From: Candidatus Hermodarchaeum yapensis
GTDB taxonomy: Archaea; Asgardarchaeota; Hermodarchaeia; Hermodarchaeales; Hermodarchaeaceae
NCBI GenBank assembly: GCA_016840405.1
Contig: JAEOSK010000019.1
Location: 1-51,649, forward strand
Reading direction: 5' to 3'
Length of the DNA stretch: 51,649 nt
Each line of letters begins with the position of its first letter. Positions within the stretch are counted from its first letter, which is position 1. The notes under the pieces are model-generated. The model had not been told where the DNA came from and made no database searches. It saw nothing but the letters and a program-made list of their open reading frames with translations. Position numbers and translations under genes: made by a program. Below are positions 9,402 to 40,009 of the stretch, one piece after another.

Positions 9402-10616
9402 CTAAAGACGCATTGTCCAATCATATTTTCGAAGCCCTAATGCGATTGTGACAGTAAGAAGCTGAATACCTGACTTACCACGAATTTGCGAATCCAAAAA
9501 TGCGTTCAGGGCATCACGCATTGGAAAACTAACCAGCAGTATGAGATTCTGGCGCTCACCGGTTTCCATTACAAGCTTCACTTCTTCAACTGCCCGCATA
9601 GCCTCGGTGAACTTCGTTAGCTGATTGGCTTCAACCTCCAATTGGATTAGCCCGAAGACATCCATGCCCACTCGCTGAGGATCAATTATCGTGCTAAACC
9701 CCTTGATTGTGTTATTTTGCTCCAGTCGGGCAACTCGACTCCGAATCGTTGCGTCACTAACCTTTAACCGACGAGACACATTCCGAAATGATAACCGCGC
9801 GTCCTGTTGCAGCAGGTTCAGGATCCGTCGATCCATCTCATCGAGATCAGCCCGGTGCTTTCGGCGTGATGGTTTTTCTGCTTCTGGTGTAGGATGATAT
9901 CCCAGATAATGAATGATGTCCCCACGATGTGCCATATTCAACCGATAGACATACAATGCCCGCCCTTTCATCTCAGAAGCTGAGGAGATAGCTTTGCATT
10001 GAAAACACCGAAACATCAGCCGCGGTTGGGCACTAATTGTGTTACAATTAAGACAATTGAAACCTAATTCCACTTTGTAGTCCTGTTGTTCGCCCTCCAA
10101 CGACTGCCCACAGGAGGGACACACCAGTTTTTTCCCCTTAGATTCAAATTCGCTTCGTGGAGCAACATGACCACAGGAAAAGTGTTCAATCATCGAATGC
10201 TGAACTAGACGACCACCCGAACACTTCAGACATTGATATTGGGGATGTAAATCCGGGGACTCACATTGCCGACACGCAAAAATGGTTTCCACCAGTTCCC
10301 CCTCAAGGAGGCCTGCCCGGTGAAGCTGTTCCAGTTTATCCACAGTTCCTTGGGCATCAGCTTCCAAGGTGAGTTCTGCCTCAGGATAGCGAAATCCATA
10401 GGAGGTCGATGAATCCAAAACGGGCTGCAATTCGACCAGGCTTCCGTCAAGCAATTGCTTGATTAACAGCCAGGCTCCTCGGTCTTCCAGTACAGAGGGT
10501 TGAAACGTCACAAGTCCACCCGCTTCCGTTGCATGTCCCAACAATCCTCTCGTTCGGGTGTTGATATGCTTTACTCTTATCACGAAACACCCAATCTTCA
10601 CAACCGCTTTCCACAA
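9402..10616 (-). CDS. TackOD1-like Zn-ribbon domain fused to a C-terminal Lrp/AsnC regulator; real start probably GTG 10510
   Basis: GFRYPEAE...L..L...GLL followed by six CxxC/HxxC pairs. C-terminal LDEMDRRILNLLQQDARLSFRNVSRRLKVSDATIRSRVARL is an AsnC HTH, followed by a RAM domain. SD-like GGGTGG precedes GTG 10510. Confidence 0.85.
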   Translation of the reverse strand: MWKAVVKIGCFVIRVKHINTRTRGLLGHATEAGGLVTFQPSVLEDRGAWLLIKQLLDGSLVELQPVLDSSTSYGFRYPEAELTLEADAQGTVDKLEQLHRAGLLEGELVETIFACRQCESPDLHPQYQCLKCSGGRLVQHSMIEHFSCGHVAPRSEFESKGKKLVCPSCGQSLEGEQQDYKVELGFNCLNCNTISAQPRLMFRCFQCKAISSASEMKGRALYVYRLNMAHRGDIIHYLGYHPTPEAEKPSRRKHRADLDEMDRRILNLLQQDARLSFRNVSRRLKVSDATIRSRVARLEQNNTIKGFSTIIDPQRVGMDVFGLIQLEVEANQLTKFTEAMRAVEEVKLVMETGERQNLILLVSFPMRDALNAFLDSQIRGKSGIQLLTVTIALGLRKYDWTMRL

Positions 10617-11305: not shown

Positions 11306-12019
11306 TTAGGAACTCACTATTACAAAGTAAATGCTTAGAATGATTAGAATCCCTGCGACGATGATTAGTCCGTAGGTAAAGAGTATGAAAGGCGCAGTAT
11401 ATTGAACAAGAGCCATTAGAATTAGCCCAATGAACCAGAGAGTTTGACCAATCATGGCAATCCAAGTCCACGTTTTTGCCATACCCTGTCGAGCTTGCGC
11501 AATGCGATAGAGGACAATGAGCGGTATCAAGAGTAAATAGAAGATGGCAAGGAAACCGCCATAAGCGACAAGTGTAAACGGCATCGCTAGAAAATTCATA
11601 ACTCCATCAGATACGATTGTGACAGTGGCCGGTGTAGGAAGAATCCATACGAGTGCAAGAAAGGTAAGCGTACCTATGATGGGAAGAAAAATCGCCCAAA
11701 TCCGTCTCTTGAAAAATGGAAGACCAAGCATATACATTACCAAGAAGAAACCATGTAACCCAATAAAGCTCCAAGCGCCAAGATACGTTGGTAAGAGTTG
11801 ATCAACCGTTGCAGCAGCTGGCAAAACGTACATTGAGATAGCTAAGACCATAAAAGTTAGAAAAGCAAAGAAAGCACCCAGAAACAAGTTGTATAATGTA
11901 CAACTAGGCTCCTCGCTTCTAAGAGCCAAAATCAAGGCTATTAGAGAACCAAGGAGTGTAAGAACGCAGATTATGATAACTAGTCCAAAATGTAATGGTG
12001 TTTCAGCAATGTAGAGCAT
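11306..12019 (-). CDS. Stand-alone 7-TM membrane protein (HisKA_7TM-like sensor without kinase domain)
   Basis: Seven hydrophobic helices, beta-hairpin-like loop between TM4 and TM5, no cytoplasmic output domain. Confidence 0.65.
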   Translation of the reverse strand: MLYIAETPLHFGLVIIICVLTLLGSLIALILALRSEEPSCTLYNLFLGAFFAFLTFMVLAISMYVLPAAATVDQLLPTYLGAWSFIGLHGFFLVMYMLGLPFFKRRIWAIFLPIIGTLTFLALVWILPTPATVTIVSDGVMNFLAMPFTLVAYGGFLAIFYLLLIPLIVLYRIAQARQGMAKTWTWIAMIGQTLWFIGLILMALVQYTAPFILFTYGLIIVAGILIILSIYFVIVSS

Positions 12020-14365: not shown

Positions 14366-14632
14366 GTGAAAACTGAATCAGCTCCCCCAAACCCGCTACG
14401 TAGCGCACCAAAAATTGCCCTCAAACTGAATGATCAGCTTTCCGAAGGAAAGGTCCGCTACTTGTACATTAACCGCTACTCAGAACAAGAAATTTCCCGC
14501 CAACTTGCAGCCATTTGTCAACTATTCCTCCTGGCACTATCACGGGACTTTGGTATCCATTCACCCAAGGATATCACCATTGAGCCATCCGATACCGGGG
14601 GAGTCAAACTAAGAATCATCGGGCGTGATTAG
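14366..14632 (+). CDS. Small hypothetical protein (88 aa), divergent from the regulator
   Basis: TATA-like CTTTATAAG at 14258-14266, AGGGA before GTG, globular alpha/beta-looking sequence, downstream hairpin. Confidence 0.65.
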   Translation: MKTESAPPNPLRSAPKIALKLNDQLSEGKVRYLYINRYSEQEISRQLAAICQLFLLALSRDFGIHSPKDITIEPSDTGGVKLRIIGRD

Positions 14633-14726: not shown

Positions 14727-16154
14727 TTAGATTTCCTCATCTGCAAATTCCCAATATTGACGTTTCTCATTCCATCGTTCGTATAAATTCTGCTGAAGCC
14801 CACTTCCCACATTCCGTTCTTGATGAATCACTAATAAATCTTCAATTTCGAAAATCTCTGGTATATCTCGGATCAATTTGTGAATAAACCCCCTCCACCC
14901 TGTTGGGCGTTTTAAAAAAATTGCTACACCTTGTATTGTGTCATACGTGAATGCCGCCGGAAAGAAAGATCCAAGCAATTGGAGTTGTTTTTTGACATCA
15001 GGTTTACAGTAGATGCTAAGACAGATGAATTCTTCAAATCCCGCACCGCTGAAATATAGCATGGGTGAAATAACGGCTTCCTTCTTCAACCGATTGAGAT
15101 GGACCCAAATTGCGTTCTTTGAAAAATGCCATCCATAACTTTCAAGAAACTCCTGTAAATCGGCGAGAGTATGTTGTGGACCAATCGCCATATTTGCTAA
15201 AAGATAATCACTTCGGCTGAATGAAACCGGGGATTGTAAGTCGACGTAATTACAATACGAGATGGTTGGAAATCTCTTTTCTTCAGGCTTGGGTATCTCA
15301 GAGAGATTTTCCAGTTCAGAAGGAATCCGCCACTGACCAACTGTGTGATCATACAGGTCAAACCGCATGTTCCAATACATTTCGAGAACTTGATGCAAAT
15401 GAACCTGATCCATATAGGTTCGATCAATCTGCTGGACTCGATCTTCAAACAGTCGATGAGCACGCTGTTGGGTTGGAATAGCGTATGTTATGAATCCATA
15501 ACGATAGGACACATCAAATACTAATGATGTCAGAAATGGTGGTTGCGTTTGCTGGACCCATGCTTCGAATTCTTGTGAGGCTTCAAAGGATTGTGTACGA
15601 AAAACGAGACTAAAGATTGTGAGTTTCAGTTTTCCACGATTTTCTGAATATAATCTCCGAAGGCCAATATCATTTTCCAGTCTTTTGATGGTGTTTGTAA
15701 CAACATATCGAGATTTTTTTACTCGGGTCGCAAGGCGAGAACTACTAATCAGTGGTTCTTCGGCAAGAATGTTAAGAATAGATATTTCGTCTTTAGTTAG
15801 CGATCTGTGAGAAGTTCTTTCTAAGCCATAAAGAAGTATTTCTTGAATACGTGACACTGAACGAATGCGGTATTCTTCGAGAATTCGGATACGATCCCGT
15901 AAGGATTCGGCAATTTCTGTGGAGATTGCGAGTTTCAAAAATTGGAGTTTTGGATGACTATTGTAGGTTTTTTCCTCTCGAGTCAGATCATCTGTTTCAA
16001 CGCGTTTGATGAAGAGGATTGCACTATAGAGTAGGCGACAAGTGTCGTCTTGTTCTGCTTTTGGTTTTACCCTCGAAACAATTCGATCTGCGATTTTTCG
16101 TAAAGGGTGGTCAATCACTCCCACCATATTGTTAACTCTGATGCTTCCACACAA
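14727..16154 (-). CDS. Putative transcription regulator with tandem (winged-helix + Lrp/RAM-like) modules; start probably ATG 16127
   Basis: wHTH 'LTKDEISILNILAEEPLISSSRLATRVKKSRYVVTNTIKRL', 'FDLYD....QW' and a second wHTH 'KNAIWVHLNRLKKE'. Same length and architecture as 12612-14033. Confidence 0.7.
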   Translation of the reverse strand: MCGSIRVNNMVGVIDHPLRKIADRIVSRVKPKAEQDDTCRLLYSAILFIKRVETDDLTREEKTYNSHPKLQFLKLAISTEIAESLRDRIRILEEYRIRSVSRIQEILLYGLERTSHRSLTKDEISILNILAEEPLISSSRLATRVKKSRYVVTNTIKRLENDIGLRRLYSENRGKLKLTIFSLVFRTQSFEASQEFEAWVQQTQPPFLTSLVFDVSYRYGFITYAIPTQQRAHRLFEDRVQQIDRTYMDQVHLHQVLEMYWNMRFDLYDHTVGQWRIPSELENLSEIPKPEEKRFPTISYCNYVDLQSPVSFSRSDYLLANMAIGPQHTLADLQEFLESYGWHFSKNAIWVHLNRLKKEAVISPMLYFSGAGFEEFICLSIYCKPDVKKQLQLLGSFFPAAFTYDTIQGVAIFLKRPTGWRGFIHKLIRDIPEIFEIEDLLVIHQERNVGSGLQQNLYERWNEKRQYWEFADEEI

Positions 16155-16384
16155 AAAGTTGATTCTTGTAGTGATTGCCGAGAGAAAATTGCTAAGAAGT
16201 GAAATATAATTTACAGTTTTCTCATGACTTCTTGGCTAAAATGATGAAAAAACGTCATTTACCGCTTGAATCCAAAAAAACGCCCCAAATCGCATTAGTT
16301 TGGGTACTTAGTAGAATGAAATCGTAGTAATACGCTCTTACTGTCTTTAACTCCCATTTTTCTTCGCTTTAAATCAAATCGATT

Positions 16385-16398
16385 GAAAGTTTTACAAA
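16385..16398 (+). promoter_or_regulatory. BRE/TATA promoter for a near-leaderless small ORF
   Basis: GAAAGTTTTACAAA lies ~25 nt before ATG 16417. Confidence 0.55.
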
Positions 16399-16416
16399 AC
16401 ACAATCGTGTGATTAT

Positions 16417-16575
16417 ATGGTAGATATCAAATCATTTGTAATTAGGCATCGTCCCGTCCTGATGGCTTCAATTATTCTCATCGCACTATTCACTCTTCAA
16501 CTGTTCCTCGTTCACATTGGTCTACTCCCAGGAATCCTGGCTGATCCTGGAAACAATCCACCACCATGGCATTAA
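16417..16575 (+). CDS. Unannotated 52-aa membrane/secreted peptide MVDIKSFVIRHRPVLMASIILIALFTLQLFLVHIGLLPGILADPGNNPPPWH
   Basis: ATG-to-TAA ORF below the 60-aa cutoff of the ORF track. Basic N-region, hydrophobic core, Pro-rich C-tail, promoter at canonical spacing. Confidence 0.7.
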   Translation: MVDIKSFVIRHRPVLMASIILIALFTLQLFLVHIGLLPGILADPGNNPPPWH

Positions 16576-16624
16576 TTCTCAGAAACATAGCATTTGACGA
16601 TCTCTTCACGATCAGCCCGATTGG

Positions 16625-17569
16625 TTGGGTCACAGGTTAAAATCGAAAGAAGGGAATACATTGCCAATGGGTGCGGTACTGCTCGAATTTGATGTGAAAA
16701 TGGGTCCGATCTTCAAATTTGCTGTCCCTAGCACACTTGAAGTTACACAAGATGAAACCATGGTCTTATTCGGAACCCGATCGGTAGTAGAGGAAGGATT
16801 CACAGGACTCACAGTCAAGGATCGCACTTGGGTAACCTATCTGAATCCCCCTTACCTTTATTGTATTCTGTTGAATCCCATGGAACATCAAGGTGAATTT
16901 GAAGAAGCCATGAAGTCCACGTTGAGTAAAGTTGAATATGATATAAACATTGACCAAGCAAAGCTTATGGAACTTTATCATGACATCCTTTCAAAGACTG
17001 AAGTTCAACTACAGGACCAATTAAGTTCACGACCTGATGTTCAAAAGTTATTAGAAGCGCTCAAAGAGAATCCCGATTCCTTTCGTCCAACTTGGTCTCT
17101 TAAAACTGGCTATCGATATCCTGCAGCTGAAAAAATAACTGGAAAATCAACCAAGGAAACGAATGGCCTTTTAGTTACAATGATGTCTGCAAATATTATT
17201 CAGGGACGAATTTGTGGGAATATTGTGGTTTGTCCTTCCTGTACTTCACACCGAGTTATTCTCCATGCCAGTTGTCCTCAATGTGGCCTTCCAACTCTAG
17301 AATCAGGGATCGCTCTTGAACACTTCGTTTGTAATTATACTGCCTTTATTGAAGCTTTTGCCACACCCTCAGGTCTTGTTTGTCCGCATTGCAAATCTTA
17401 CCTCTCACCAGGAACCTACCGCTCTCCAGGCAAAGTCTTCCACTGTATCACTTGTAATAGCTATCCCAAAACACCTGAATACACACTTGGATGCATCGAT
17501 TGCAAAGAGGCCTTTTCACCTGAAATTGCAAAATTTACTCCCATCTATTGCTATACTGCTCTCAAATAA
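16625..17569 (+). CDS. Longin/uDENN-like N-terminal domain fused to a TackOD1-like Zn-ribbon domain; start probably 16661 or 16667
   Basis: N-terminal 'AVLLEFDVKMGP' (F-D-x3-G-P longin/uDENN motif). C-terminal GYRYP plus six CxxC/HxxC pairs, homologous to 9402-10616. Confidence 0.75.
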   Translation: MGHRLKSKEGNTLPMGAVLLEFDVKMGPIFKFAVPSTLEVTQDETMVLFGTRSVVEEGFTGLTVKDRTWVTYLNPPYLYCILLNPMEHQGEFEEAMKSTLSKVEYDINIDQAKLMELYHDILSKTEVQLQDQLSSRPDVQKLLEALKENPDSFRPTWSLKTGYRYPAAEKITGKSTKETNGLLVTMMSANIIQGRICGNIVVCPSCTSHRVILHASCPQCGLPTLESGIALEHFVCNYTAFIEAFATPSGLVCPHCKSYLSPGTYRSPGKVFHCITCNSYPKTPEYTLGCIDCKEAFSPEIAKFTPIYCYTALK

Positions 17570-17657: not shown

Positions 17658-17849
17658 TTACTTAAGGACAATTGCTTCTTCAGCACAGTTTTCCACACAA
17701 CTTTCACAGTCGACGCAAGCGTCAGGATCTGTGACCTTAGAGAGATTATCTTCTAAGGTGAAACATTCACTGGGGCAAACATCAACGCAGGTTCCACAGC
17801 CAGTGCATTTTGATTCATCTACAACTGGTGGCATGATTTCTTTTTCCAT
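17658..17849 (-). CDS. 2x[4Fe-4S] ferredoxin (start may be ATG 17834)
   Basis: CTGCGTCVDVCP and CVDCESCVENCA motifs. Confidence 0.95.
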   Translation of the reverse strand: MEKEIMPPVVDESKCTGCGTCVDVCPSECFTLEDNLSKVTDPDACVDCESCVENCAEEAIVLK

Positions 17850-27195: not shown

Positions 27196-30100
27196 ATGGG
27201 GAACTCGAAAAAGACATTAATTTCGCTTGCTTTTATCCTTGGTATTCTGCTCGTAGTCCCTCACTCGCAGAATTTAGTGCCTGCGGTACGCAGCGGAGCG
27301 CCACCTAATTCACCCTATACCGGCAGTGGAGGCTCCCTTGATGTTTTTGAGTTTGCCCGAAATGAAAGCAATGTGTTCACAGATGGCATTAACACTACAT
27401 CATTTCAATACGATGCCAGTTGGTTCCCATCAGACTATCGTGGCTATCAACTTGTCACCAGTGTTACTAATCTTGTTAGAACTGAGGATCCAATACTCAA
27501 CGGGGATTTTGACAAATACGATGAAGCCTTCAATATTGATGGGAGTCAATTAGATGTCGAAGTACACAACTGGACACTTACTCAAAATGATGGAAAATCT
27601 GGTGACGACAGTAAAAGGATTATCGCGAGTATTCACAACAATACAGGAGGTAATCCAGGAGATTGTATGGACATTGAGCTACGTTATGGAAAAACTGACT
27701 TAACGGAAGCCAATGCTACTCTTGAAAGTGAATTTAGTTATGTCTCTGCCTTATCACCAACTAACCTTACCTTCTCTTTTGATATCAAATTTTCAAGTGA
27801 TATTACTCAAGAAAATTGGCTTTTTGTGATTGTGAGTTTAGAATATCAAGCCGAAGTCATTGCTAGTTGGCAGCAAACCACAGATTCCTATCATCCAACA
27901 AGTTGGGATCACCACGCAATTACTACAAGTCCAATCAATGGAACCGTTACTCTTCGCTTAACGGTAATGAAACAAGGTGGAAATAAAAGAGCTCCAGTGA
28001 ATGGACATATTTACTTTGATAACTTTCGATACACCATTGAGACCCCAAGTAAACCCAGCGAAGTAGCTCTTACACTAAATAGTGAAGTTGTCACGGATGC
28101 GGGGGACCAAACAGGATTAGCCACCATTTATGCAGATCCTACAAATCGACACGAAGCCCCTCTTTCTAACTGCTGGACAACCACTCAAAATTATCAATTT
28201 GATTCATCCTACAACATCAGCTTTCACTATTCCTACGCGATGTATGTTAAGCATCTTCAATCTACCCAGGCAACCGCTTCCTTTTCCGCACCAGTTGATG
28301 AGAATCCAACATGGGAAGTAAACTATTCTATTCCCATGGATCAACCCCCCGCAGAGCACGTGGGGTATTCTTATGGATTATACCTCAAGCCGCTTTGGAG
28401 CTTTACTGAAGTAAAGAATGAAACCGGACACACCCTTTCTACTTATAGCTATAATGCATCAAGTCAGTTCTTCAAACTCGACAATGGCGTAGCTTCACCC
28501 GGACAGATTTATTCCATATATGCTAGCAGCCTAAACTATGTGCTCCAAGTGTATCTGCAAAAAAGTGCAACTGGATTGGGAGATTGGGAAAATCTTTCTA
28601 ATGGGGATTATTATGTAGCTAATGACTGGCTTCGAGTGAAGGCTACGTTACGACCAATTGGACCTAGTGGTAACAGTGCTAATGTTTCAATTTTTTATCC
28701 AAACCAAACATTATGGCAAAGTGAAACTTCTGTCACATTTCATGACGATAATAATACCCTAACAAGTTCGGCTTGGCAGATTCCGAACATCGAAGAAGCC
28801 GATGCAGGAAGTGATTGGGTAGCAACTTTGGCCTATAATAACGAAACCCAATGTGGATTAAAACAACAATCGTTTACTGTTGTGATTCCAACTCAAGGTA
28901 ATGAAATCTCCCCTGCGGACCAGAATCGAGTCATTCTCGGCGAAACGGTTCTAGTAAACGTTACTTGGGCAAATGATGTTACATCCCAATTCATTGTCGA
29001 TGCATCTGCTCAAATTCGTTATATCGACCGTAACCTGCAAGTTCAATATGAACCAATGACTCCAAATGGGTTGGGTGCCTATTCTGCCAACTTTGATACT
29101 GGTTCAATGAGTCCTGATCAAAATGCAGAATTTTATGTTGAGCTCTTTCGATACGGATACGTTAACGCTACCTATGCTGATGGAACCTATCTCACATTCA
29201 CGATCAACTTGGTCAATAATCTTGAATATTCTATGATAAAGCCAACGCAAGAAACTGGGCCTAATGAGTACACAGCTCAAACAACACGAGATGCAGGATA
29301 TACCAGTCAGGTTCGATTCTATGATTCCTATCTTGACGCCTATGTTCGAAATGATTCAGGAATCTGGATGAATAATGTCCGAGTTAATTTCACCTATTAT
29401 GTAGACCCAACAGGTCTCCCTGGCTGGACGCCCATCAGTACAGGTAGTTTCGTACCAGATAGCTTTGATGCCACCATCTTCCTTCGATATGATGCATCGT
29501 ATGGTGATTTTGAAGCCGTCAAATATGAAGTAAGTATGTGGGTGGATGGTTCATTTGGTTGGGAGTATGAGCAGCAGAATTTCACAATTATCATCGAGAT
29601 CGTGTCATTTGCCACTAATCTTGATGCAATTCGCACACATATTACCAATCCACCCGCAGGTTCAGGTGATGGATGGACACAATACGAAAATGACACAGAT
29701 GTTTACACAGCAAATCTCTATTGGAATGAATTATTCAACATCACCGTTTTCTACGAGAATGAAACCACTTCAACAGGAATCCCTGGGGCAACAGTTCAAC
29801 TACTCATTGGTATGAGTCTATATCCCCTAACTGACAATACTGGAGGTTACTATTACTACATACTCAATACGACCACCCTGGGCTTGGGGCAGACGGATCT
29901 CTACGTGAATGCTTCGTTGGCTGCTCATGCTGAGCAAACAATCAGAATACGGGTAATCGTTGAATCCCGAGCCACGCAATTGACAAAGGATTATCCCCGC
30001 TCTTCAGTAGAAATTCCATATAATGATGACTTCATGGTAGTGTTTAATTTCACAGATATTGTGCCATCAAGTCCAATATACATCACCAGTGCAACGGTGT

Positions 30101-33100
30101 TAGTAGAAGGCTACGAATCAGGTAAATACACCATAAGCAACCATCTGAACGGGAGCTACTCTATCCTCTTCTGGGGTAACATCAGTGAAACCATCTATGA
30201 TGTAACCGTGTATTTCAGCCTGGCAAATTACACAACTCAACACCAGTATTTGGAAATCACCATTCGCTACATCGAAACCTATGCTTCAGGATCCGCACTT
30301 TCTGGCTCAGTTCCTTGGGGTGACAACGTCACCATCACTTTATCATTCAACGATACTGATCATGGATACATAGGCATAGATGGCGCCTCTCTCACTTTCA
30401 CCTGGTTTGATAATATCGAAAATGTCGATTTCTGGATTATCCTTCTCGGTGATGGAACATATTCAATAATTCTCAATACTACCAAAGTTTCATTAGGGAC
30501 ACAGGGTTTCACTCTTACTTTCGTGTTGAATAGGACACATTATGAATCCGCTCAAGTTGCCGTCTCCTTCCAGGTTCGTGACATATTAACCGCTTTGTAT
30601 ATCGTATCTATCTCACCAGGCTCATCTGTTCCCTGGGGCGATACTCTCACTCTCACCCTAACATTCAATGACACAGATCATGACCATATTCCAATTCCAT
30701 ATGCCACGATTACCTGTGATTGGGATGAATTCTATTGGAGTTTCGCATATACCCCTGCCACAGGGGCATACACCTTAACAATTCGAACCGAAAGCCGGCT
30801 AGAGGGAAGCTACACGATTCACATCTACGCAGGCAAATCCCATTATCAAACTTTCATGGCCCTTCAAAACTTTATGACACGAAATATCCAAACGAATTAT
30901 CAAGCAGATCCATTGTACATACCTTCGCAACCTTGGGGCGATAACGTCACAATTCGTCTCTACTACCTAGATCTCGATCATGGTGGATATATCCCATTTG
31001 CTGAAATCGATACTGATTGGAATGATACTTTTTACACAATCTATCTATTCGGTAATGGAACCTACATCATCGAATTCAATACTACTTGTCGTGAAGTCGG
31101 GAGTTATACCATCTTAATCACTCTGAGCCGTACACACTATATAACACAAAATGTCGAAATCGACTTAACTCTAAGAAACATCCAAACAGATGTTACGGCT
31201 GACCCTAGCTACATATGGTCACATCCATGGGGCGACAACACGACTATAACCATTAACTATTTGGATCAAGATCATACGGCATATGTGCTAAGCGCAATTA
31301 TCAGTTTAGATTGGAATGCTAGCTACTATACTATCTATGACTTAGGAAATGGCACCTACCTCATTGAACTCAATACAACCTGTCGTAATATTGGCAGTCA
31401 TAATATTGAGATTACATTAAGTCGCCTTCATTACGTCACTCAAATCATAGAAATTGATCTTACCATCCGAGAAATTCAAACTGGCTACTCAGTTGATCCT
31501 GCATATATTCCTTCAAACCCCTGGGGAGATAATATCACAATCCAAATAGACTATATTGACCTTGACCACGGAGGCTATATCCCCGGTGCACTCATCGGTG
31601 TTGATTGGAATACAAGCTATTTCACGATATATGATTTAGGTAATGGAACATATTTGATTGAACTAAATACGTCCTGTCGTGAAGTTGGCAGCCATTCAAT
31701 TACAATTGATGTCACTCTATTCCATTATGGAAGTCAGATTATACAGGTTGACCTTACACTAAGAGACATTCAAACCGATTTTGAGGTTGATGCCTCTGTG
31801 TTCCCCTCCCACCCATGGGGTGACAATGTTACCGTTCGAATCAACTTCTTAGATGTTGATCATAGTGACTATGTGACTAGTGCTTTAGTCACTACTGACT
31901 GGAATGCAAGCTTTTACAAAATTTACTCGCTTGGTAATGGAACCTATGTTATTGAATTCAATACAACTTGTCGGGCCAATGGTCTCCACATATCACTCGT
32001 GTCTCTTAGCAGAATTCATTATGCTGGTCAAATTTTCCAAGTTAGAATTACTCTGCGTGATATTCAAACCGATACGGATGCCGATCCCTTGTACATTACT
32101 TCACATCCCTGGGGTGTTAACCTCACCATTCAAGTCGATTACATTGACCTTGAACACAGTGGATTTGTACTTGGAGCTTCGGTAGGCACTGACTGGGATC
32201 TAGGGTACTATACGATTTATGATCTGTTTAATGGAACCTATCTTATTGAACTCAATACGACGAGTCGAGATGTTGGTAGTTTTGCGGTTCAGATTACATT
32301 GAACCAACTGCACTACGAATCACAGATTGTTAACGTTCAATTTACTTTGCATGGTCGAAATACTCAGGTTTCCTATTCCTCACCTGAGCCTGTACCTTTC
32401 ACCGAGGATCTCACATTTACGATTTTCTACAATGATAGCGCTACAACCGACCCAATCCATAATGTAACTGGTAATGTCTACATCACAGTTGGGTGTTCTT
32501 CACATCCAACACTTACGTTGAACTATACCATTCTAATGCTAAACAACGGGTATGATGGCTATTTCGTTACAATTCGAACCCATAACTTCCTCGAAGTGAA
32601 TGTGTGGTACTCCTTCGTTGTCAATATCACTTGGCCTAACATCACGCCCTATTATCAAAATCAATCACTCCCCGTCAGTGGTTATGTGCGTTCAATACAC
32701 ACTTCTATGGAACTAAGCTTTGATAGTATTGTATTCTGGGGTGACTTACTCTATCTGAATGCAACATACCATGACATCGATCATGATGTCGTCTTATCCA
32801 ATGGAACTGTCACGCTCTGGTTGAGTTGGCCGTCATGGTCCCTTGTCCAAATCTATCCAGATGGGACCTACCTCATTCAAATCGATAGTTCCGCCGAAGA
32901 TATTGGACTTGCCAACTTTACAATTCGTTTCTCAAAACCATTCTACGAAACTAGTGAACAGCAAGTACAATTTACGGTTAATCCATTACCACTCTATGTT
33001 GAGGTTCTCTCCACTTCTCCGTGGGTCGCCGAATATCAGACTCTTGTGAATATTTCCGTTAGAGTCACCGATGAATATGGTCGTCTTATGAATGACACGA

Positions 33101-35259
33101 TGACCACCTATTATTGGGCTGGATTATCCCCGGTGAATATGACGTTTGTTGGAAACGGAATTTACAACATTATATTCTTCGCCAATCAAACTGTTGGTAC
33201 ATATCTTGTAACTATCGAAGCCAGCAATCTTCCCAATTACCAGACAAGCATTGGAATCGTCATGCTCAATATTATCCCCATTGATTCAGTGTTAGCCGTA
33301 AGTGGTCCCGCATCTCCAGTCATTGCAGGTGACACATTCCAAATCAACGCCAACTTTAGCACAATCTATGGTTCAGCCTTACCTAACGCAACAGTATATT
33401 TCAACTGGGCTGGAGGCAACGGAACCCTCTCCTATATCAGTGGGTGGACATTCGAAAGCATTCTCAACTCTTCAGGTTTAGATGCTGGCCAATATACAAT
33501 TTACATCACAGCTAGTCACCAGAATGTCATTGAACAGCTCCGAACGGTTTCCATTTCTCTAATCGTTATGCCTGCATACCTAGAATGTGATACGCCTGTA
33601 ATCAATGTTGATTGGGGTCACAACTTCACCGTACGTGCCCACTTCTACGACAATAACCTACTCAACATTACAGGTGCCAACATTCAATACATATGGGGAA
33701 CCCTCAATGGAACCTTGCAACCCACCGGAACTCCGGGCTGGTATAACATCTCCCTCCCAAGCGATATCTTTGCGGTTGGTGTTTATGAGTTAACCCTCAC
33801 TTGTGACCATGAGGGTTACCAATATGTCATGATTACAATCGGGTTAAATATCCAACCACGCCAAACGAACCTTGACATTATTGAAATTCAAGCTGAACTT
33901 GATGAACAAAGCATACTCATTCCATTGAATGGAACATCTTGGGAAGTCCCGCGTGGCGATATTCTATGGATTTATCTGAATTTCACTGATGGTGATGGAA
34001 TTACGGTTACGAGCGCTACTGGCGTTTATACTTGGGAGTTTGGAAGTGGTGTGCTGCAATTTTCGAATGGATTGTATTTTGCCAGTATTAACCTCACTGA
34101 TGTGACACCAGGAATTTATGGTGTTTCAATAACGCTAACTCGACACAATTTCGAAACAGCGAATGCCCCGCTATTCCAATTGACTGTTATTCCAGTACCC
34201 ACAGAGATCATCGGGCTCGATGATACCCTCAGTATCACCACTGGAGAATCATTTAGCCTTCAAGTGACATTCTACGATACTTACCATGACATTGTCATTA
34301 CTGATGCAACTCTATTCGTATCTCTCCCAGCGATTGGCATACACCAAAGACCGATGTTCAATAATGGAGATGGCACCTACACTCTCCCTGGATTATCTGT
34401 CTTAACAGAGGGAACATATTCCGTTACTATCGAATCAGTAGCGGCTCCGAAATATGCTCAAGCTCAGGATTCTATGACCTTAGTAGTAAGCCTAAGTCCC
34501 CTATTCCGGGCTGCCATTCAAGCGGGAGCAGCACTAGGCGTCATTTTGATTATTGTCCTCCTCGCTTGGCTTGCATATGCAAGAATCTACTCAATTCCTT
34601 GGATCGTTCGAAGAATGCGAAAGATGACCAAGGCAATTGACCGAGGTAAAGTTCCTTCCCTTTCTAAAAGTGATATAACTCGGATTTCAGATCGCGATAA
34701 CCAAATCGTATCAATGATTACCCCCTCGTATTCGACCCTAGATGTTCCGATTCAACCGGTGGTCATCCCAACGACAACAATACCTGCTGAGCGCCGTTCA
34801 GAAGATGAGGATGTGCTGGTGGAGCTTGAACAGCTTGAAGGATTAGGCGCAAAAGAAAAAGAGGAATTGTTCAAGCAGATGAAGAAAATTCCCGCCAAGG
34901 ACCGAGTTTGGTTCATGGAAGATATGAAACGTCAGATGGCTGAAGGGCGATTTGATTACCTACGAACTGGTGATGCCGAAGTCGAGGGCGAAGCTGAAGA
35001 AGTTGAAGCCCCAGCAACACCTGGACTAAGTCCATCTGAACAAGCGACTTTAGTTGCGGTCCTCCGTGAGGGTTTAGATCAGTTTACAATGATTAGCGAT
35101 GATGACAAGGAAGCCTTAGTACAACAACTCATCATCATGACACCTGAGGAACGCGAATCCACGATAAAGAAACTAATGGCTCGGATGAAAGGTCTTCAAC
35201 TTGAAGAACCAGACCCTGCACCAAAAATGAAGAAGCGAAAGAAAAAAGCTGATTCCTAA
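27196..35259 (+). CDS. Giant (2687 aa) single-pass cell-surface glycoprotein with Ig-like repeats and an acidic helical cytoplasmic tail
   Basis: Signal peptide, many N-x-S/T sequons, ~100-aa beta-rich repeats (PWGD...D.DH...GNGTY), TM 'GAALGVILIIVLLAWLAY', ~220-aa cytoplasmic tail. Confidence 0.85.
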   Translation: MGNSKKTLISLAFILGILLVVPHSQNLVPAVRSGAPPNSPYTGSGGSLDVFEFARNESNVFTDGINTTSFQYDASWFPSDYRGYQLVTSVTNLVRTEDPILNGDFDKYDEAFNIDGSQLDVEVHNWTLTQNDGKSGDDSKRIIASIHNNTGGNPGDCMDIELRYGKTDLTEANATLESEFSYVSALSPTNLTFSFDIKFSSDITQENWLFVIVSLEYQAEVIASWQQTTDSYHPTSWDHHAITTSPINGTVTLRLTVMKQGGNKRAPVNGHIYFDNFRYTIETPSKPSEVALTLNSEVVTDAGDQTGLATIYADPTNRHEAPLSNCWTTTQNYQFDSSYNISFHYSYAMYVKHLQSTQATASFSAPVDENPTWEVNYSIPMDQPPAEHVGYSYGLYLKPLWSFTEVKNETGHTLSTYSYNASSQFFKLDNGVASPGQIYSIYASSLNYVLQVYLQKSATGLGDWENLSNGDYYVANDWLRVKATLRPIGPSGNSANVSIFYPNQTLWQSETSVTFHDDNNTLTSSAWQIPNIEEADAGSDWVATLAYNNETQCGLKQQSFTVVIPTQGNEISPADQNRVILGETVLVNVTWANDVTSQFIVDASAQIRYIDRNLQVQYEPMTPNGLGAYSANFDTGSMSPDQNAEFYVELFRYGYVNATYADGTYLTFTINLVNNLEYSMIKPTQETGPNEYTAQTTRDAGYTSQVRFYDSYLDAYVRNDSGIWMNNVRVNFTYYVDPTGLPGWTPISTGSFVPDSFDATIFLRYDASYGDFEAVKYEVSMWVDGSFGWEYEQQNFTIIIEIVSFATNLDAIRTHITNPPAGSGDGWTQYENDTDVYTANLYWNELFNITVFYENETTSTGIPGATVQLLIGMSLYPLTDNTGGYYYYILNTTTLGLGQTDLYVNASLAAHAEQTIRIRVIVESRATQLTKDYPRSSVEIPYNDDFMVVFNFTDIVPSSPIYITSATVLVEGYESGKYTISNHLNGSYSILFWGNISETIYDVTVYFSLANYTTQHQYLEITIRYIETYASGSALSGSVPWGDNVTITLSFNDTDHGYIGIDGASLTFTWFDNIENVDFWIILLGDGTYSIILNTTKVSLGTQGFTLTFVLNRTHYESAQVAVSFQVRDILTALYIVSISPGSSVPWGDTLTLTLTFNDTDHDHIPIPYATITCDWDEFYWSFAYTPATGAYTLTIRTESRLEGSYTIHIYAGKSHYQTFMALQNFMTRNIQTNYQADPLYIPSQPWGDNVTIRLYYLDLDHGGYIPFAEIDTDWNDTFYTIYLFGNGTYIIEFNTTCREVGSYTILITLSRTHYITQNVEIDLTLRNIQTDVTADPSYIWSHPWGDNTTITINYLDQDHTAYVLSAIISLDWNASYYTIYDLGNGTYLIELNTTCRNIGSHNIEITLSRLHYVTQIIEIDLTIREIQTGYSVDPAYIPSNPWGDNITIQIDYIDLDHGGYIPGALIGVDWNTSYFTIYDLGNGTYLIELNTSCREVGSHSITIDVTLFHYGSQIIQVDLTLRDIQTDFEVDASVFPSHPWGDNVTVRINFLDVDHSDYVTSALVTTDWNASFYKIYSLGNGTYVIEFNTTCRANGLHISLVSLSRIHYAGQIFQVRITLRDIQTDTDADPLYITSHPWGVNLTIQVDYIDLEHSGFVLGASVGTDWDLGYYTIYDLFNGTYLIELNTTSRDVGSFAVQITLNQLHYESQIVNVQFTLHGRNTQVSYSSPEPVPFTEDLTFTIFYNDSATTDPIHNVTGNVYITVGCSSHPTLTLNYTILMLNNGYDGYFVTIRTHNFLEVNVWYSFVVNITWPNITPYYQNQSLPVSGYVRSIHTSMELSFDSIVFWGDLLYLNATYHDIDHDVVLSNGTVTLWLSWPSWSLVQIYPDGTYLIQIDSSAEDIGLANFTIRFSKPFYETSEQQVQFTVNPLPLYVEVLSTSPWVAEYQTLVNISVRVTDEYGRLMNDTMTTYYWAGLSPVNMTFVGNGIYNIIFFANQTVGTYLVTIEASNLPNYQTSIGIVMLNIIPIDSVLAVSGPASPVIAGDTFQINANFSTIYGSALPNATVYFNWAGGNGTLSYISGWTFESILNSSGLDAGQYTIYITASHQNVIEQLRTVSISLIVMPAYLECDTPVINVDWGHNFTVRAHFYDNNLLNITGANIQYIWGTLNGTLQPTGTPGWYNISLPSDIFAVGVYELTLTCDHEGYQYVMITIGLNIQPRQTNLDIIEIQAELDEQSILIPLNGTSWEVPRGDILWIYLNFTDGDGITVTSATGVYTWEFGSGVLQFSNGLYFASINLTDVTPGIYGVSITLTRHNFETANAPLFQLTVIPVPTEIIGLDDTLSITTGESFSLQVTFYDTYHDIVITDATLFVSLPAIGIHQRPMFNNGDGTYTLPGLSVLTEGTYSVTIESVAAPKYAQAQDSMTLVVSLSPLFRAAIQAGAALGVILIIVLLAWLAYARIYSIPWIVRRMRKMTKAIDRGKVPSLSKSDITRISDRDNQIVSMITPSYSTLDVPIQPVVIPTTTIPAERRSEDEDVLVELEQLEGLGAKEKEELFKQMKKIPAKDRVWFMEDMKRQMAEGRFDYLRTGDAEVEGEAEEVEAPATPGLSPSEQATLVAVLREGLDQFTMISDDDKEALVQQLIIMTPEERESTIKKLMARMKGLQLEEPDPAPKMKKRKKKADS
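30886..32355 (+). repeat. Five tandem 294-bp (98-aa) intragenic repeats
   Basis: 'IQT' codons begin at 30886, 31180, 31474, 31768 and 32062, an exact 294-nt period. Confidence 0.9.
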
Positions 35260-36949: not shown

Positions 36950-39900
36950 ATGTCTAAATCTAAGAAGTTACCCCCTCTTGATCCCGACTTAGAGGAAGAA
37001 ATGTTCAAATCTATCGCTGAGAAGGCTCCACAAGGGATAGTAGTCTTACAAGGTGAAAGCATTCTCTATGCAAACGATATGCTGGGAGAACTAATGGGTA
37101 TCCCCCTTGAAGAGATCCATCAACTTAATGCCTTTGAGTTCATGAATTATATTGCTGACCCCGATCAAGCTGATGTCACTCGAAGATTGAAATCAGCGGT
37201 TCAAGGCGAGGTAAAAACTAAACTCTATGAGTTTCGTGTAAAGGATAGCAAGGGGGAGTTAAGGTGGCTTCAGGTTCTTCCACGCCTAATCACAATACAA
37301 GAGAAACCTGCAATACTAGCCATGATAACCGAAGTCACTGAACAAAAGCGTACAGAACAAGCCTACCGTGAACTGGTCGATCATTCCTTACAAGGAATCA
37401 TCATCATTCAAGATATGCAGGTCGTATTTTCCAATGAAGCCTTCGCAGAAATGAGTGGTTATACCCTTGATGAACTTCTAGCACTCACTCCAAAACAAGT
37501 GCAGGATAGTGTCCATCCTGATTACCAAACCCGTGTATGGGGTCGGATGCGAGAACGCCTCGAAGGCAAACCCGTTCCCTCACATTATTCCTTTAAAGCT
37601 ATTGGAAAAGATGGCAGTGAACGCTGGCTAGAAATGTATGTCATCGTCACCGAATATAATGGTAAACCTGCTATCCAAGCCACTTTCATTGATATCACAG
37701 AACGCCAAGAGGCAGACATCAAACTCCAAGAATCCGAGGCCCGCTACCGTGGATTATTCGACGACCTTCCTGTCGGTTTGTATCGAACCAGCAAAGATGG
37801 ACAAATCATCGATGCCAATCCGGCACTCATTAAATTACTTGGAGCCAAGGATATAGAAGAGCTTCTCGCTTTGAATGCCTCTGACTTCTATGTCGATCGT
37901 GATGAAAGAGAGCATTACGAAGAAATTCTCGGTCAAGAGGGCATCGTAACCGGTCATGATGTGCAATTCAAACGATTAGATGGCGAAGTTATTTGGGTTC
38001 ATGATACTTTCCGAGCCATTCGAGATGAGGCTGGGGCAGTCCATTATTATGAGGGATCGTTGGAGGATATCACCGATCAGAAACGAGCAGCGCTAGCTCT
38101 CAAAGAAAGTGAAGAGAAATACCGAACGCTGGTCGAAACATCACCCGACGCTATTACGGTTACAGACTTGGAAGGCAAAGTAATAATGTGCAACCAACAG
38201 GCATTACAATTGTATGGGATTGAGGATGAAAAGGATTTGTTAGGGGTCAGTGCATTCGAGCTTATTGATCCAGAAGATGTACCAATAGCGATGGAGAATT
38301 TACAAACAACCCTTCAAACAGGACGTTCTGGAACTTTAGAATATACATTACTTCGTCGTGACGGCACTCCTTATCCAGCTGAATTAAATGCTGCACTTCT
38401 CAAAGATGCTAAAGGAAACCCTACTGCATTCATCGGAGTTATACGTGATATCAGTAAGCGCAAGGAAGCTGAAGCAAAATACCAAAGCCTCTTCGATAGC
38501 GTTCCAATCGGACTCTACCGTACAATGCCAGATGGAACTATTCTCGATGGCAATCCTGCGCTAGTAGAAATTCTTGGGTTCAATACAAAAGCCCAACTTC
38601 TTGAACGAAATGCTTCCAGCTTCTATGCCGATCCAAATGCTCGAAAACAATGGGAAGTTATCATCGCGCGAGAAGATGTTGTTACGGGATTTCAAACTGA
38701 ATTCAAGCGTGACGATGGAAAGACTATCTGGGTGGAACTTTCAGTCCGTGCTGTTCGAGATGGGGAAGGAAATATTGAATGCTATGAAGGAAACCTGGAA
38801 GATATCACTGATCGGAAGCGCAGTGAAGAAGCTGTTCGGGAATCTGAAGCCAAGTACCGTGCACTAGTCGATCAATCTCTACAAGGGATTGTCATTTTTC
38901 AAGATAGTCGTATTGTTTTTGCGAATCCTCAATTGATGGATCAACTCCAAAAAACACCAGAGGATATCGTAGGTGCACCGCCAGAAACGTTTTGGAATTT
39001 GATTCATCCGGAAGACATTGAGATCCTTCAACAACGGATGCAAGACCGTGTTGCAGGTGAACCAGTTCCGGATCGATATGAAGTTCGGCTTCTCCGACCA
39101 GATGGCGGACCTATGTGGGTCGAATCCTATGTCAAACAAATCGACTATCAGGGGAAACCAGCCCTACAAGTCACCAGCATTGATGTCACTGAACGAAAAT
39201 TAGCTGAACAGGCGTTACAAGAATCAGAAGGGAAATACCGGAATCTCGTTGAACAATCCCTCTATGGCATCGTTATTTCCCAGGGTGACCCCCCACGAAT
39301 CTTTTTCGCAAATGAAGCCTTTTCCAAAATGATTGGATTTAGTGTTGAAGAAATCCTCGCCATGTCACCGAAGAAAGTCCAGAATCTGATTCATCCTTCT
39401 GATCAAGAACTGGTCTTAACCCGCGTAACACGCAGGCTAGAAGGAAAATCAGCACCTCCCCAATATGAATACCGATTGGTTCGAAAAGACGGAAGTGTTC
39501 GCTGGGTGGAAATCTTTGCCAACGTCATTGAGTACGAAGGGGAACCTGCCATCCAGGCGGCATATTCCGATATCACCGAACGCAAAAAGGCTGAAGCTGC
39601 GCTTCTTGAATCAGAAGAAAAATTCCGCGCCTTAGTCGAAGATTTATCCGATTGGGTCTGGGAACTCGATCTCAAAGGGACAATCACCTACAGCAACAGC
39701 GCCGTAGAAGATATTCTAGGCTTCTCCGCCGGTCAAGTCCTAGGACAGACACCGTGTGACTTTCTCCGACCCGAAGACGTCGAAAGAGCACAACAAACCT
39801 TCGCTGAACTCATCGAGAAACAACGACCCATTCGAACACTCGTCATCCAGTTTGTCCACCGCGATCACTCCGATGTCACTCTTGAAGCACGCGGAAGCCC

Positions 39901-40009
39901 TATATTTGATGAAAACGGAGCACTTCTTGGCTTCCGTGGTATCTTCCGAGATATCACTGATCGACTAAAAATGCTTGAACAACTTCGCGCACTCGATGAG
40001 CGATTGTGA
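36950..40009 (+). CDS. Multi-PAS (8x PAS-PAC) sensor protein without output domain
   Basis: Eight repeats of 'E.KYR.LVE.S..GI...N...IHP.D...DG...W...DITERK'; no HisKA, HATPase, GGDEF or REC domain; SD GGTGA. Confidence 0.9.
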   Translation: MSKSKKLPPLDPDLEEEMFKSIAEKAPQGIVVLQGESILYANDMLGELMGIPLEEIHQLNAFEFMNYIADPDQADVTRRLKSAVQGEVKTKLYEFRVKDSKGELRWLQVLPRLITIQEKPAILAMITEVTEQKRTEQAYRELVDHSLQGIIIIQDMQVVFSNEAFAEMSGYTLDELLALTPKQVQDSVHPDYQTRVWGRMRERLEGKPVPSHYSFKAIGKDGSERWLEMYVIVTEYNGKPAIQATFIDITERQEADIKLQESEARYRGLFDDLPVGLYRTSKDGQIIDANPALIKLLGAKDIEELLALNASDFYVDRDEREHYEEILGQEGIVTGHDVQFKRLDGEVIWVHDTFRAIRDEAGAVHYYEGSLEDITDQKRAALALKESEEKYRTLVETSPDAITVTDLEGKVIMCNQQALQLYGIEDEKDLLGVSAFELIDPEDVPIAMENLQTTLQTGRSGTLEYTLLRRDGTPYPAELNAALLKDAKGNPTAFIGVIRDISKRKEAEAKYQSLFDSVPIGLYRTMPDGTILDGNPALVEILGFNTKAQLLERNASSFYADPNARKQWEVIIAREDVVTGFQTEFKRDDGKTIWVELSVRAVRDGEGNIECYEGNLEDITDRKRSEEAVRESEAKYRALVDQSLQGIVIFQDSRIVFANPQLMDQLQKTPEDIVGAPPETFWNLIHPEDIEILQQRMQDRVAGEPVPDRYEVRLLRPDGGPMWVESYVKQIDYQGKPALQVTSIDVTERKLAEQALQESEGKYRNLVEQSLYGIVISQGDPPRIFFANEAFSKMIGFSVEEILAMSPKKVQNLIHPSDQELVLTRVTRRLEGKSAPPQYEYRLVRKDGSVRWVEIFANVIEYEGEPAIQAAYSDITERKKAEAALLESEEKFRALVEDLSDWVWELDLKGTITYSNSAVEDILGFSAGQVLGQTPCDFLRPEDVERAQQTFAELIEKQRPIRTLVIQFVHRDHSDVTLEARGSPIFDENGALLGFRGIFRDITDRLKMLEQLRALDERL

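Follow-up and report, generated by a model that had tools for sequence, protein, structure and literature searches.

The window analysed here, a 51,649-nt stretch of DNA from a member of the Hermodarchaeota (as indicated by the names carried by near relatives of its regulator 1), contains a 52-codon ORF whose product ends in DPGNNPPPWH. The question raised by this locus is whether these ten residues are released as a secreted peptide signal, as originally predicted, and, if so, which protein would receive it. The layout put forward in that prediction is indeed what the sequence reads: a basic N-terminal region (K5 and R10-H11-R12, net charge +2), a hydrophobic core (mean Kyte-Doolittle value of 2.67 for the 19-mer starting at residue 14), the residues I-L-A, the tail DPGNNPPPWH and a TAA stop codon. 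Both expected neighbours were also confirmed, the gene being divergent from a 466-aa regulator with a winged helix-turn-helix (wHTH), hereafter designated as regulator 1, at a distance of about 290 bp, and followed after 85-91 nt by a gene with a TackOD1 domain (Table 1). The description of the gene as unannotated held in part, with the 52-aa form called as a hypothetical protein in other assemblies and the leaderless forms described below missed by gene callers. Pfam searches returned no match for the 52-aa peptide, regulator 2 or the 237-aa membrane protein, and a pattern search of the same genome revealed no other export-tagged DP-peptide.

Table 1. Features of the micropeptide locus and of its immediate surroundings in the window.
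Feature	Position	Strand	Remarks
237-aa multi-pass membrane protein ("7-TM")	11306..12019	-	neighbour; not a core part
Regulator 2, about 470 aa	12612..14033	-	24% identical to its paralogue, regulator 1; next after it in all loci of sufficient length
88-aa conserved small protein	14366..14632	+	between the two regulators; same ten genomes as regulator 1
Regulator 1, 466 aa	14727..16127	-	ATG at 16127; helical N-domain (1-105) and two wHTH-RAM (Lrp/AsnC) modules; gene the peptide always faces
Motif AGAnAAAATTG, non-coding	16180..16192	.	conserved near the regulator 1 start; candidate operator or promoter element
TATA-like box TTTAAA	16368..16373	+	conserved in the 12-locus alignment; preceded by a conserved T-tract, not a purine-rich BRE; putative function
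Shine-Dalgarno-like GTGAT	16409..16413	+	conserved ahead of both export-tagged and leaderless forms
Pro-peptide gene, 52 aa	16417..16575	+	n-region aa 1-13, core aa 14 to about 37, c-region P38-G-I-L-A42
Predicted mature decapeptide DPGNNPPPWH	16543..16572	+	after Ala42 (codon 16540-16542); cleavage predicted by the -3/-1 rule
TackOD1-domain gene	16661..17569	+	PF18551, E 7.7e-25; directly 3' of the peptide gene

The 52-codon ORF is a real gene. It is kept in place in seven other assemblies, with homologues sharing 86-92% identity in the protein collection and 55% in one genome of the same genus; further homologues were taken from contigs bearing the regulator, and all those that could be placed sit in an identical gene order. 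Pairwise dN/dS ratios ranged from 0.20 to 0.34, with the fewest changes at codon position 2 (small counts), indicating an ORF that is conserved and under selection at the protein level, a point that had been set beforehand as the refuting test. Changes in the tail are too few to give it a dN/dS ratio of its own, and its conservation was assessed by position: among eight export-tagged Hermodarchaeota sequences, invariant residues number 7 of 10 over Ala42-Trp51 and 12 of 40 over residues 2-41, the tail being, as predicted, better conserved than the membrane segment.

The proposed promoter did not hold at the position first assigned to it. The BRE/TATA pair placed at 16385-16397 reads GAAAG-TTTTACAA, and in an alignment of the intergenic regions of 12 loci the GAA(A)G part is kept, while TTTTACAA (16390) is lost in most relatives; a TATA box at 16390 was rejected on these grounds. 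The conserved TATA-like box is the upstream TTTAAA, a region in which T at 16360, 16369 and 16370 and A at 16373 are invariant among the 12 loci. A simple scan of positions 16100-16750 found no terminator-like hairpin.

Protein searches detected the 52-mer in only 1 of the 14 genomes of the same genus, with a regulator 1 orthologue present in nine. The 52-mer was missed in most of them because the corresponding slot is occupied by a leaderless ORF that consists of the tail only: in eight genomes of the genus, the syntenic position holds an ORF of 11-17 codons with a Shine-Dalgarno (SD) sequence, at 279-298 nt from the regulator start. The encoded peptides, such as MYNPTEDPYPW, MTNHPPDTGQDPYPW and MEVYPPGDPSPDPWSL, are like the 52-mer tail in length and composition. 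These leaderless forms were found only by means of synteny, direct protein searches missing them and yielding chance matches to membrane segments. Since export-tagged and leaderless versions share one orthologous position within a single genus, the boundary of the mature peptide is fixed, and the predicted decapeptide would be the counterpart of an entire leaderless micro-gene product.

Micro-genes are not restricted to regulator 1. Those facing a second paralogous clade of regulators lie at 294-297 nt (for example MVPGTNPFPF), and paralogous regulators of one genome face different peptides (in G003, ...DPYPW versus ...NPFPF), as expected of cognate pairs; overall, peptide sequence tracks regulator clade. 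In the genome under study, a third paralogous regulator (L020:12783, minus strand; contig C42 of G000, about 60780) faces a leaderless 14-codon micro-gene, MDFPQQPSNPMPVT, and scanning found no micro-gene in front of a regulator pair located close to it (C42:53346-56207). Two other small ORFs were observed in this survey. One, of 26-30 codons and rich in proline (end PWPWPIPPPPL), is convergent on a stand-alone regulator paralogue (L048:1355-1445, plus strand; contig C21 of G010). The other is an intergenic, SD-led ORF of 13 codons, MNPGQDGPCGPVF, facing a 525-aa gene (L188 about 3743, minus strand; contig C33:8743 of G000); it satisfies the micro-gene rule given below, yet has no tandem-Lrp gene nearby, and may be a chance occurrence or belong to another system.

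Beyond the genus, a regulator profile matched 117 of 400 Asgard genomes, comprising 18 of 18 in the family of the studied genome, three further families dominated by f6 (84 of 89), which probably corresponds to the Thorarchaeia, and several small families; no match was obtained in the 135 genomes of family f9, where four candidates were scored per genome and distant forms may be missed. Viral contigs contained no relative of regulator 1 with the query used. In f6 loci, a regulator pair faces a small operon, and the micro-genes were recognised by a rule combining an SD sequence, an ATG, either 8-18 codons or a hydrophobic leader, two Pro together with D/E/N in the last 13 residues, and a P-aromatic end. 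This rule applied to 42 of the 44 f6 loci with enough DNA and to 2 of 946 control regions, taken upstream of other large genes of the studied genome, a very large contrast even though the f6 peptides were already known when the rule was drawn up and the counts, coming from kindred genomes, are not independent. Together with the same slot in the eight genomes of the genus, this makes the link to the divergent regulator far stronger than originally supposed, and the contrast and the dN/dS ratios rule out a chance ORF. Asgard micropeptide genes facing this regulator family are thus Pro-rich, acidic and aromatic-ended, and each faces its own regulator.

Several features of the f6 loci were recorded alongside. 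Some loci carry two micro-gene copies that differ at synonymous sites only; at L101:5679-5910, L103, L115 and L131, micro-genes occur as tandem duplicates spaced by about 185 nt; every copy has an SD of its own, and the proteins are identical or nearly so. Proline codons of f6 micro-genes (L099-L158) are CCA in 66% of cases (119/179) versus 38% in the regulator genes of these loci, a bias absent from the Hermodarchaeota micro-genes. A conserved 85-aa small protein is encoded after the micro-gene (L101:5954-6211 and 41 other f6 loci); its match to the 88-aa protein of our locus is weak (hhalign, E 0.048), and the 88-aa protein has no Atlas match and no likeness to regulator 1. Finally, at L101:5347-5538 and in most f6 loci (L104-L158), the space between regulator and micro-gene contains a conserved ORF of some 50-60 aa with PPCEDPxPF at its end, which possibly mimics the micropeptide as a fusion or antagonises it.

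Most members of the family have no signal peptide. Export-tagged forms nevertheless occur outside the Hermodarchaeota, in families f14 and f5, with the junctions VLA|DPQDPW and IIA|DPPNGD, and comparison of the three export-tagged lineages revealed the series ILA|DP, VLA|DP and IIA|DP, with VLG|TP (Gly at -1) in one variant. By pattern, n-, h- and c-regions and a small residue at -1 are found in all export-tagged forms. In the regulator tree (midpoint-rooted, from 39 selected rows, with two long branches), the Hermodarchaeota export-tagged forms constitute one clade (96/93) that nests amid leaderless relatives, which suggests that the tag was added to a leaderless ancestor. The f5 tag, from G022, bears a weak likeness to the Hermodarchaeota tag (hhalign probability 59%), which would also fit a single older origin of the export tag or its transfer.

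The nature of the partner was approached through its predicted structure. A single-sequence fold of regulator 1 reached a pLDDT of 34, and an AlphaFold2 model based on a 61-row alignment (pLDDT 91.6, pTM 0.86) was used instead. From residue 157 onwards, this model is alpha/beta throughout, and the best structural match of residues 112-466 was NirDL (PDB 4czc; Z 14.6, rmsd 4.8, 281 aligned positions, 12-13% identity), further matches being LrpC, PH0061 and AsnC (Foldseek, VIA-align), with two wHTH and RAM modules. An HTH_24 DNA-binding domain scored above the Pfam cut-off, and TPR families were absent among the fold-search matches listed. Judged by the fold that its model does show, regulator 1 is a tandem Lrp/AsnC protein and no RRNPP/TPR receptor. 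The RAM domains (conservation 0.66-0.67, versus 0.55-0.57 for the wHTH domains) and a Trp-rich C-terminus are its most conserved parts. Regulator 2 and the 88-aa gene make up the rest of the cassette. A complex predicted for regulator 1 (alignment A1) and residues 23-52 of the peptide scored 0.01, which speaks neither way.

NirDL and AhbAB are enzymes with an Lrp fold. The tandem-Lrp protein might thus be a modifying enzyme with the micropeptide as its RiPP-like substrate, a reading to which the match with a siroheme decarboxylase and the better conservation of RAM over wHTH domains would lend themselves. The identity to NirDL is, however, only 12-13% and may just mirror two fused Lrp units, while the HTH_24 domain, the divergent layout and the conserved promoter motifs suit a transcription factor, and neither a leader nor a protease or tailoring gene was conserved in the loci read. 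We give this reading very little credence.

As for the function of the cassette, we favour a pheromone-like circuit in which a cut at Ala42 would free the decapeptide to act on the neighbouring regulator or regulators, and put its probability at somewhat under one half (about 0.45). By the rules for signal-peptide n-, h- and c-regions, the 52-aa product would insert into the membrane with its N-terminus in and its C-terminus out, and signal peptidase I, whose sites obey the -3/-1 rule, would cleave after Ala42. By analogy with known systems, the freed decapeptide would be re-imported, probably through an Opp/Dpp-type importer, and bind the RAM-domain part of regulator 1, which could be on its own or joined by regulator 2 and the 88-aa protein. 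Binding could then alter transcription driven by the 290-bp divergent promoter that the two genes share, that of the peptide gene itself and of the TackOD1 gene included, the circuit acting like Rgg/SHP or RopB/LCP with an unrelated Lrp-type receptor. The genome encodes a signal peptidase I (TIGR02228) and many family-5 peptide-binding proteins (SBP_bac_5), genes that show a capacity for export and re-import only. RAM domains of Lrp proteins are ligand-binding modules, and NirDL holds a large ligand with the same tandem fold; to our knowledge, the effectors of Lrp proteins known so far are single amino acids and none is a peptide. A signal peptide of 42 residues is long for signal peptidase I, and the 52-mer could be an uncleaved membrane anchor.

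The predominance of leaderless forms bears directly on this circuit, implying that export is optional or takes some other route, and makes a role inside the producing cell its main rival. The micropeptide would then be a cofactor or antagonist of its own regulator in the same cell, with no cell-to-cell signal, and the export tag would serve to remove the peptide from the cytoplasm, to delay it as an export-reimport timer, or to tether it. The great majority of the peptides being made in the cytoplasm beside the regulator fits such a role, as do the longer cytoplasmic f6 protein with its similar PPCEDPxPF ending and the lack of any exporter gene conserved across the loci read. Harder to accommodate are the export tags with a kept cleavage-type junction in three lineages. 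The signal peptide of the 52-mer marks where the mature part starts and argues for a product passing outside the cell; its tail is expected outside because the n-region is positive (positive-inside rule), and a tethered tail in that location could not reach a cytoplasmic regulator. Moreover, leaderless peptides may still be secreted signals, as proven in Firmicutes for those encoded divergently from RopB (PMC10518010). A purely cell-autonomous partner is, on balance, rather unlikely.

The pheromone-like circuit was originally linked to two further neighbours. The TackOD1 gene follows the peptide gene in all export-tagged Hermodarchaeota loci read and in the leaderless G009 and G012, and it sits elsewhere in G004, G006 and G007. 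Across loci the gene 3' of the peptide varies while the link to the regulator persists, and the TackOD1 gene is an accessory, probably a target of the circuit. The longin domain assigned to the N-terminus of its product amounts to a weak lead (Atlas score 0.83, with NPR2 in 19% of one cluster). Where the TackOD1 gene is missing, several relatives have the micro-gene faced convergently by a small ferredoxin gene, present in the window at 17658-17849 (minus strand). A second TackOD1 protein (window 9402-10616, minus strand), fused to an Lrp/AsnC module, adjoins the 7-TM gene across the genus. Elsewhere in the window are a 2687-aa ORF (27196-35259, plus strand) with no Pfam match at E 0.001 and a 1019-aa protein (36950-40009, plus strand) in which Pfam recognises six to seven PAS domains only.

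The second neighbour, the 7-TM protein proposed as a sensor, is encoded no more than about 5 kb from regulator 2 in the studied genome and in five others (G003, G004, G006, G007 and G011). That much of the link stands; outside one genus the gene has no tie to the cassette, and in G009 and G012 it is carried on different contigs. There are several paralogues of it, and it occurs also in genomes in which the regulator 1 orthologue was not found. A search of the four genomes of the sister genus g2 did not find it, three of the four having a micropeptide beside their regulator. The 7-TM link is a matter of genus-level synteny only, and the protein was rejected as a dedicated receptor. These data also weigh on the possibility that the regulators merely control the peptide gene, the peptide being an output that acts elsewhere, for example on the 7-TM protein or on another cell. 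A divergent layout is typical of a regulator and its target, such control would predict the linkage just as well, and the proximity of the 7-TM gene in six genomes would provide a receptor, were it not for its dispersal, its multiple copies and the failure to find it in g2. The fact that the peptide follows the regulator clade is most simply explained if the two are partners, though shared descent also yields that pattern. An output acting elsewhere thus appears improbable.

A Pro-rich ORF could also act during its own translation, through ribosome stalling, as a CreT-like toxin, an aIF5A sensor or an arrest peptide of the SecM/MifM type. The peptides contain 27% proline and have strong SD sites, the copy studied carries PPP, and CCA codons are in excess outside the Hermodarchaeota (the 119 of 179, mostly f6). 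PPP, however, varies to PRP, PGP and PEP even among close relatives, 59 of 66 micro-ORFs are without PP, Hermodarchaeota copies use all four Pro codons, the terminal aromatic and acidic residues are kept, and several genomes have no co-oriented gene close behind. CreT resembles the 52-aa ORF in its strong SD and Pro codons near the stop, and needs two consecutive Pro codons right before the stop (10.64898/2026.06.02.729485); the 52-aa ORF ends in P-W-H, and consecutive prolines are not conserved. CreT systems further feature a GC-rich protective hairpin behind the mini-ORF and control by CRISPR-Cas/CreA; no cas genes were found among those window proteins that were scanned. Arrest peptides (SecM, MifM, VemP, ApdA/P) share the N-terminal export signal and the conserved Pro-rich C-terminus; those monitoring Sec/YidC have a spacer of more than 30 aa and lie upstream of secA, secDF or yidC (PMC10987492). 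Here, the hydrophobic core extends to about residue 33-37 of 52, leaving fewer than 20 aa to the C-terminus, and the gene located 3' is TackOD1, or variable elsewhere. Polyproline stalling was accordingly rejected as the main role, and any translation-acting function is considered highly improbable.

Extended to the whole family, the favoured reading becomes an Asgard peptide-pheromone system in which Pro-rich 9-17-mers, leaderless or tagged, would be sensed by tandem Lrp/AsnC proteins with a private code for each paralogue, a proposal we regard as tentative. Literature searches, conducted mostly without subscription journals, found neither a description of the cassette nor any work on peptide signalling in the Asgard archaea, which are the closest relatives of eukaryotes. 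Little is known of how archaea signal from cell to cell, and for haloarchaea the field has been called largely unexplored (PMC10223598). If true, this would be the first peptide-based cell-to-cell signalling circuit in archaea, with a receptor class unrelated to RRNPP and an amino-acid-sensing Lrp fold turned peptide receptor. Even if cell-autonomous, a peptide-controlled Lrp protein would be new. In either case, a widespread class of 9-17-codon genes has been overlooked by annotation, and the cassette offers more than 60 natural peptide-regulator pairs that are testable in vitro without culture.

Among known systems, the RRNPP family (Rap-Phr, PlcR-PapR, NprR-NprX, AimR-AimP, Rgg-SHP) includes the Phr and PapR pro-peptides to which the original prediction referred, and combines a signal peptide and a short C-terminal peptide encoded beside a regulator with paralogous pairs that have differing peptides. 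The analogy with Phr and PapR stands for the gene logic and fails for the parts: the Asgard regulator is a tandem Lrp/AsnC protein and has no C-terminal TPR receptor domain, the export tag is optional and missing from most members, and the predicted mature part is 9-17 aa versus 5-8 (PMC10518010). Closer in architecture are RopB/SIP and the LCP family (PMC10518010), in which an ultra-short peptide gene with its own SD is divergent from a cytoplasmic regulator, longer precursor forms occur too, and discovery relied on a similar neighbourhood search. A small peptide gene with its own ribosome-binding site beside the regulator is common to all of these. LCPs are, however, hydrophobic 8-9-mers of Firmicutes with receptors ending in a C-terminal TPR, whereas the Asgard peptides are Pro-rich, acidic and terminally aromatic, and the cassette falls outside RRNPP/LCP because the fold of its putative receptor is tandem Lrp, not TPR. 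With the Lrp/AsnC proteins, regulator 1 shares the wHTH-RAM module, present twice per chain as in NirDL, and it differs by an extra 105-aa helical N-domain, a conserved W-rich C-terminus, the low identity noted above and the paired peptide gene; known Lrp/AsnC effectors are amino acids (sirohaem, as a substrate, in NirDL). The logic of the cassette is thus known and its parts are unrelated, and it is categorically new if binding is shown.
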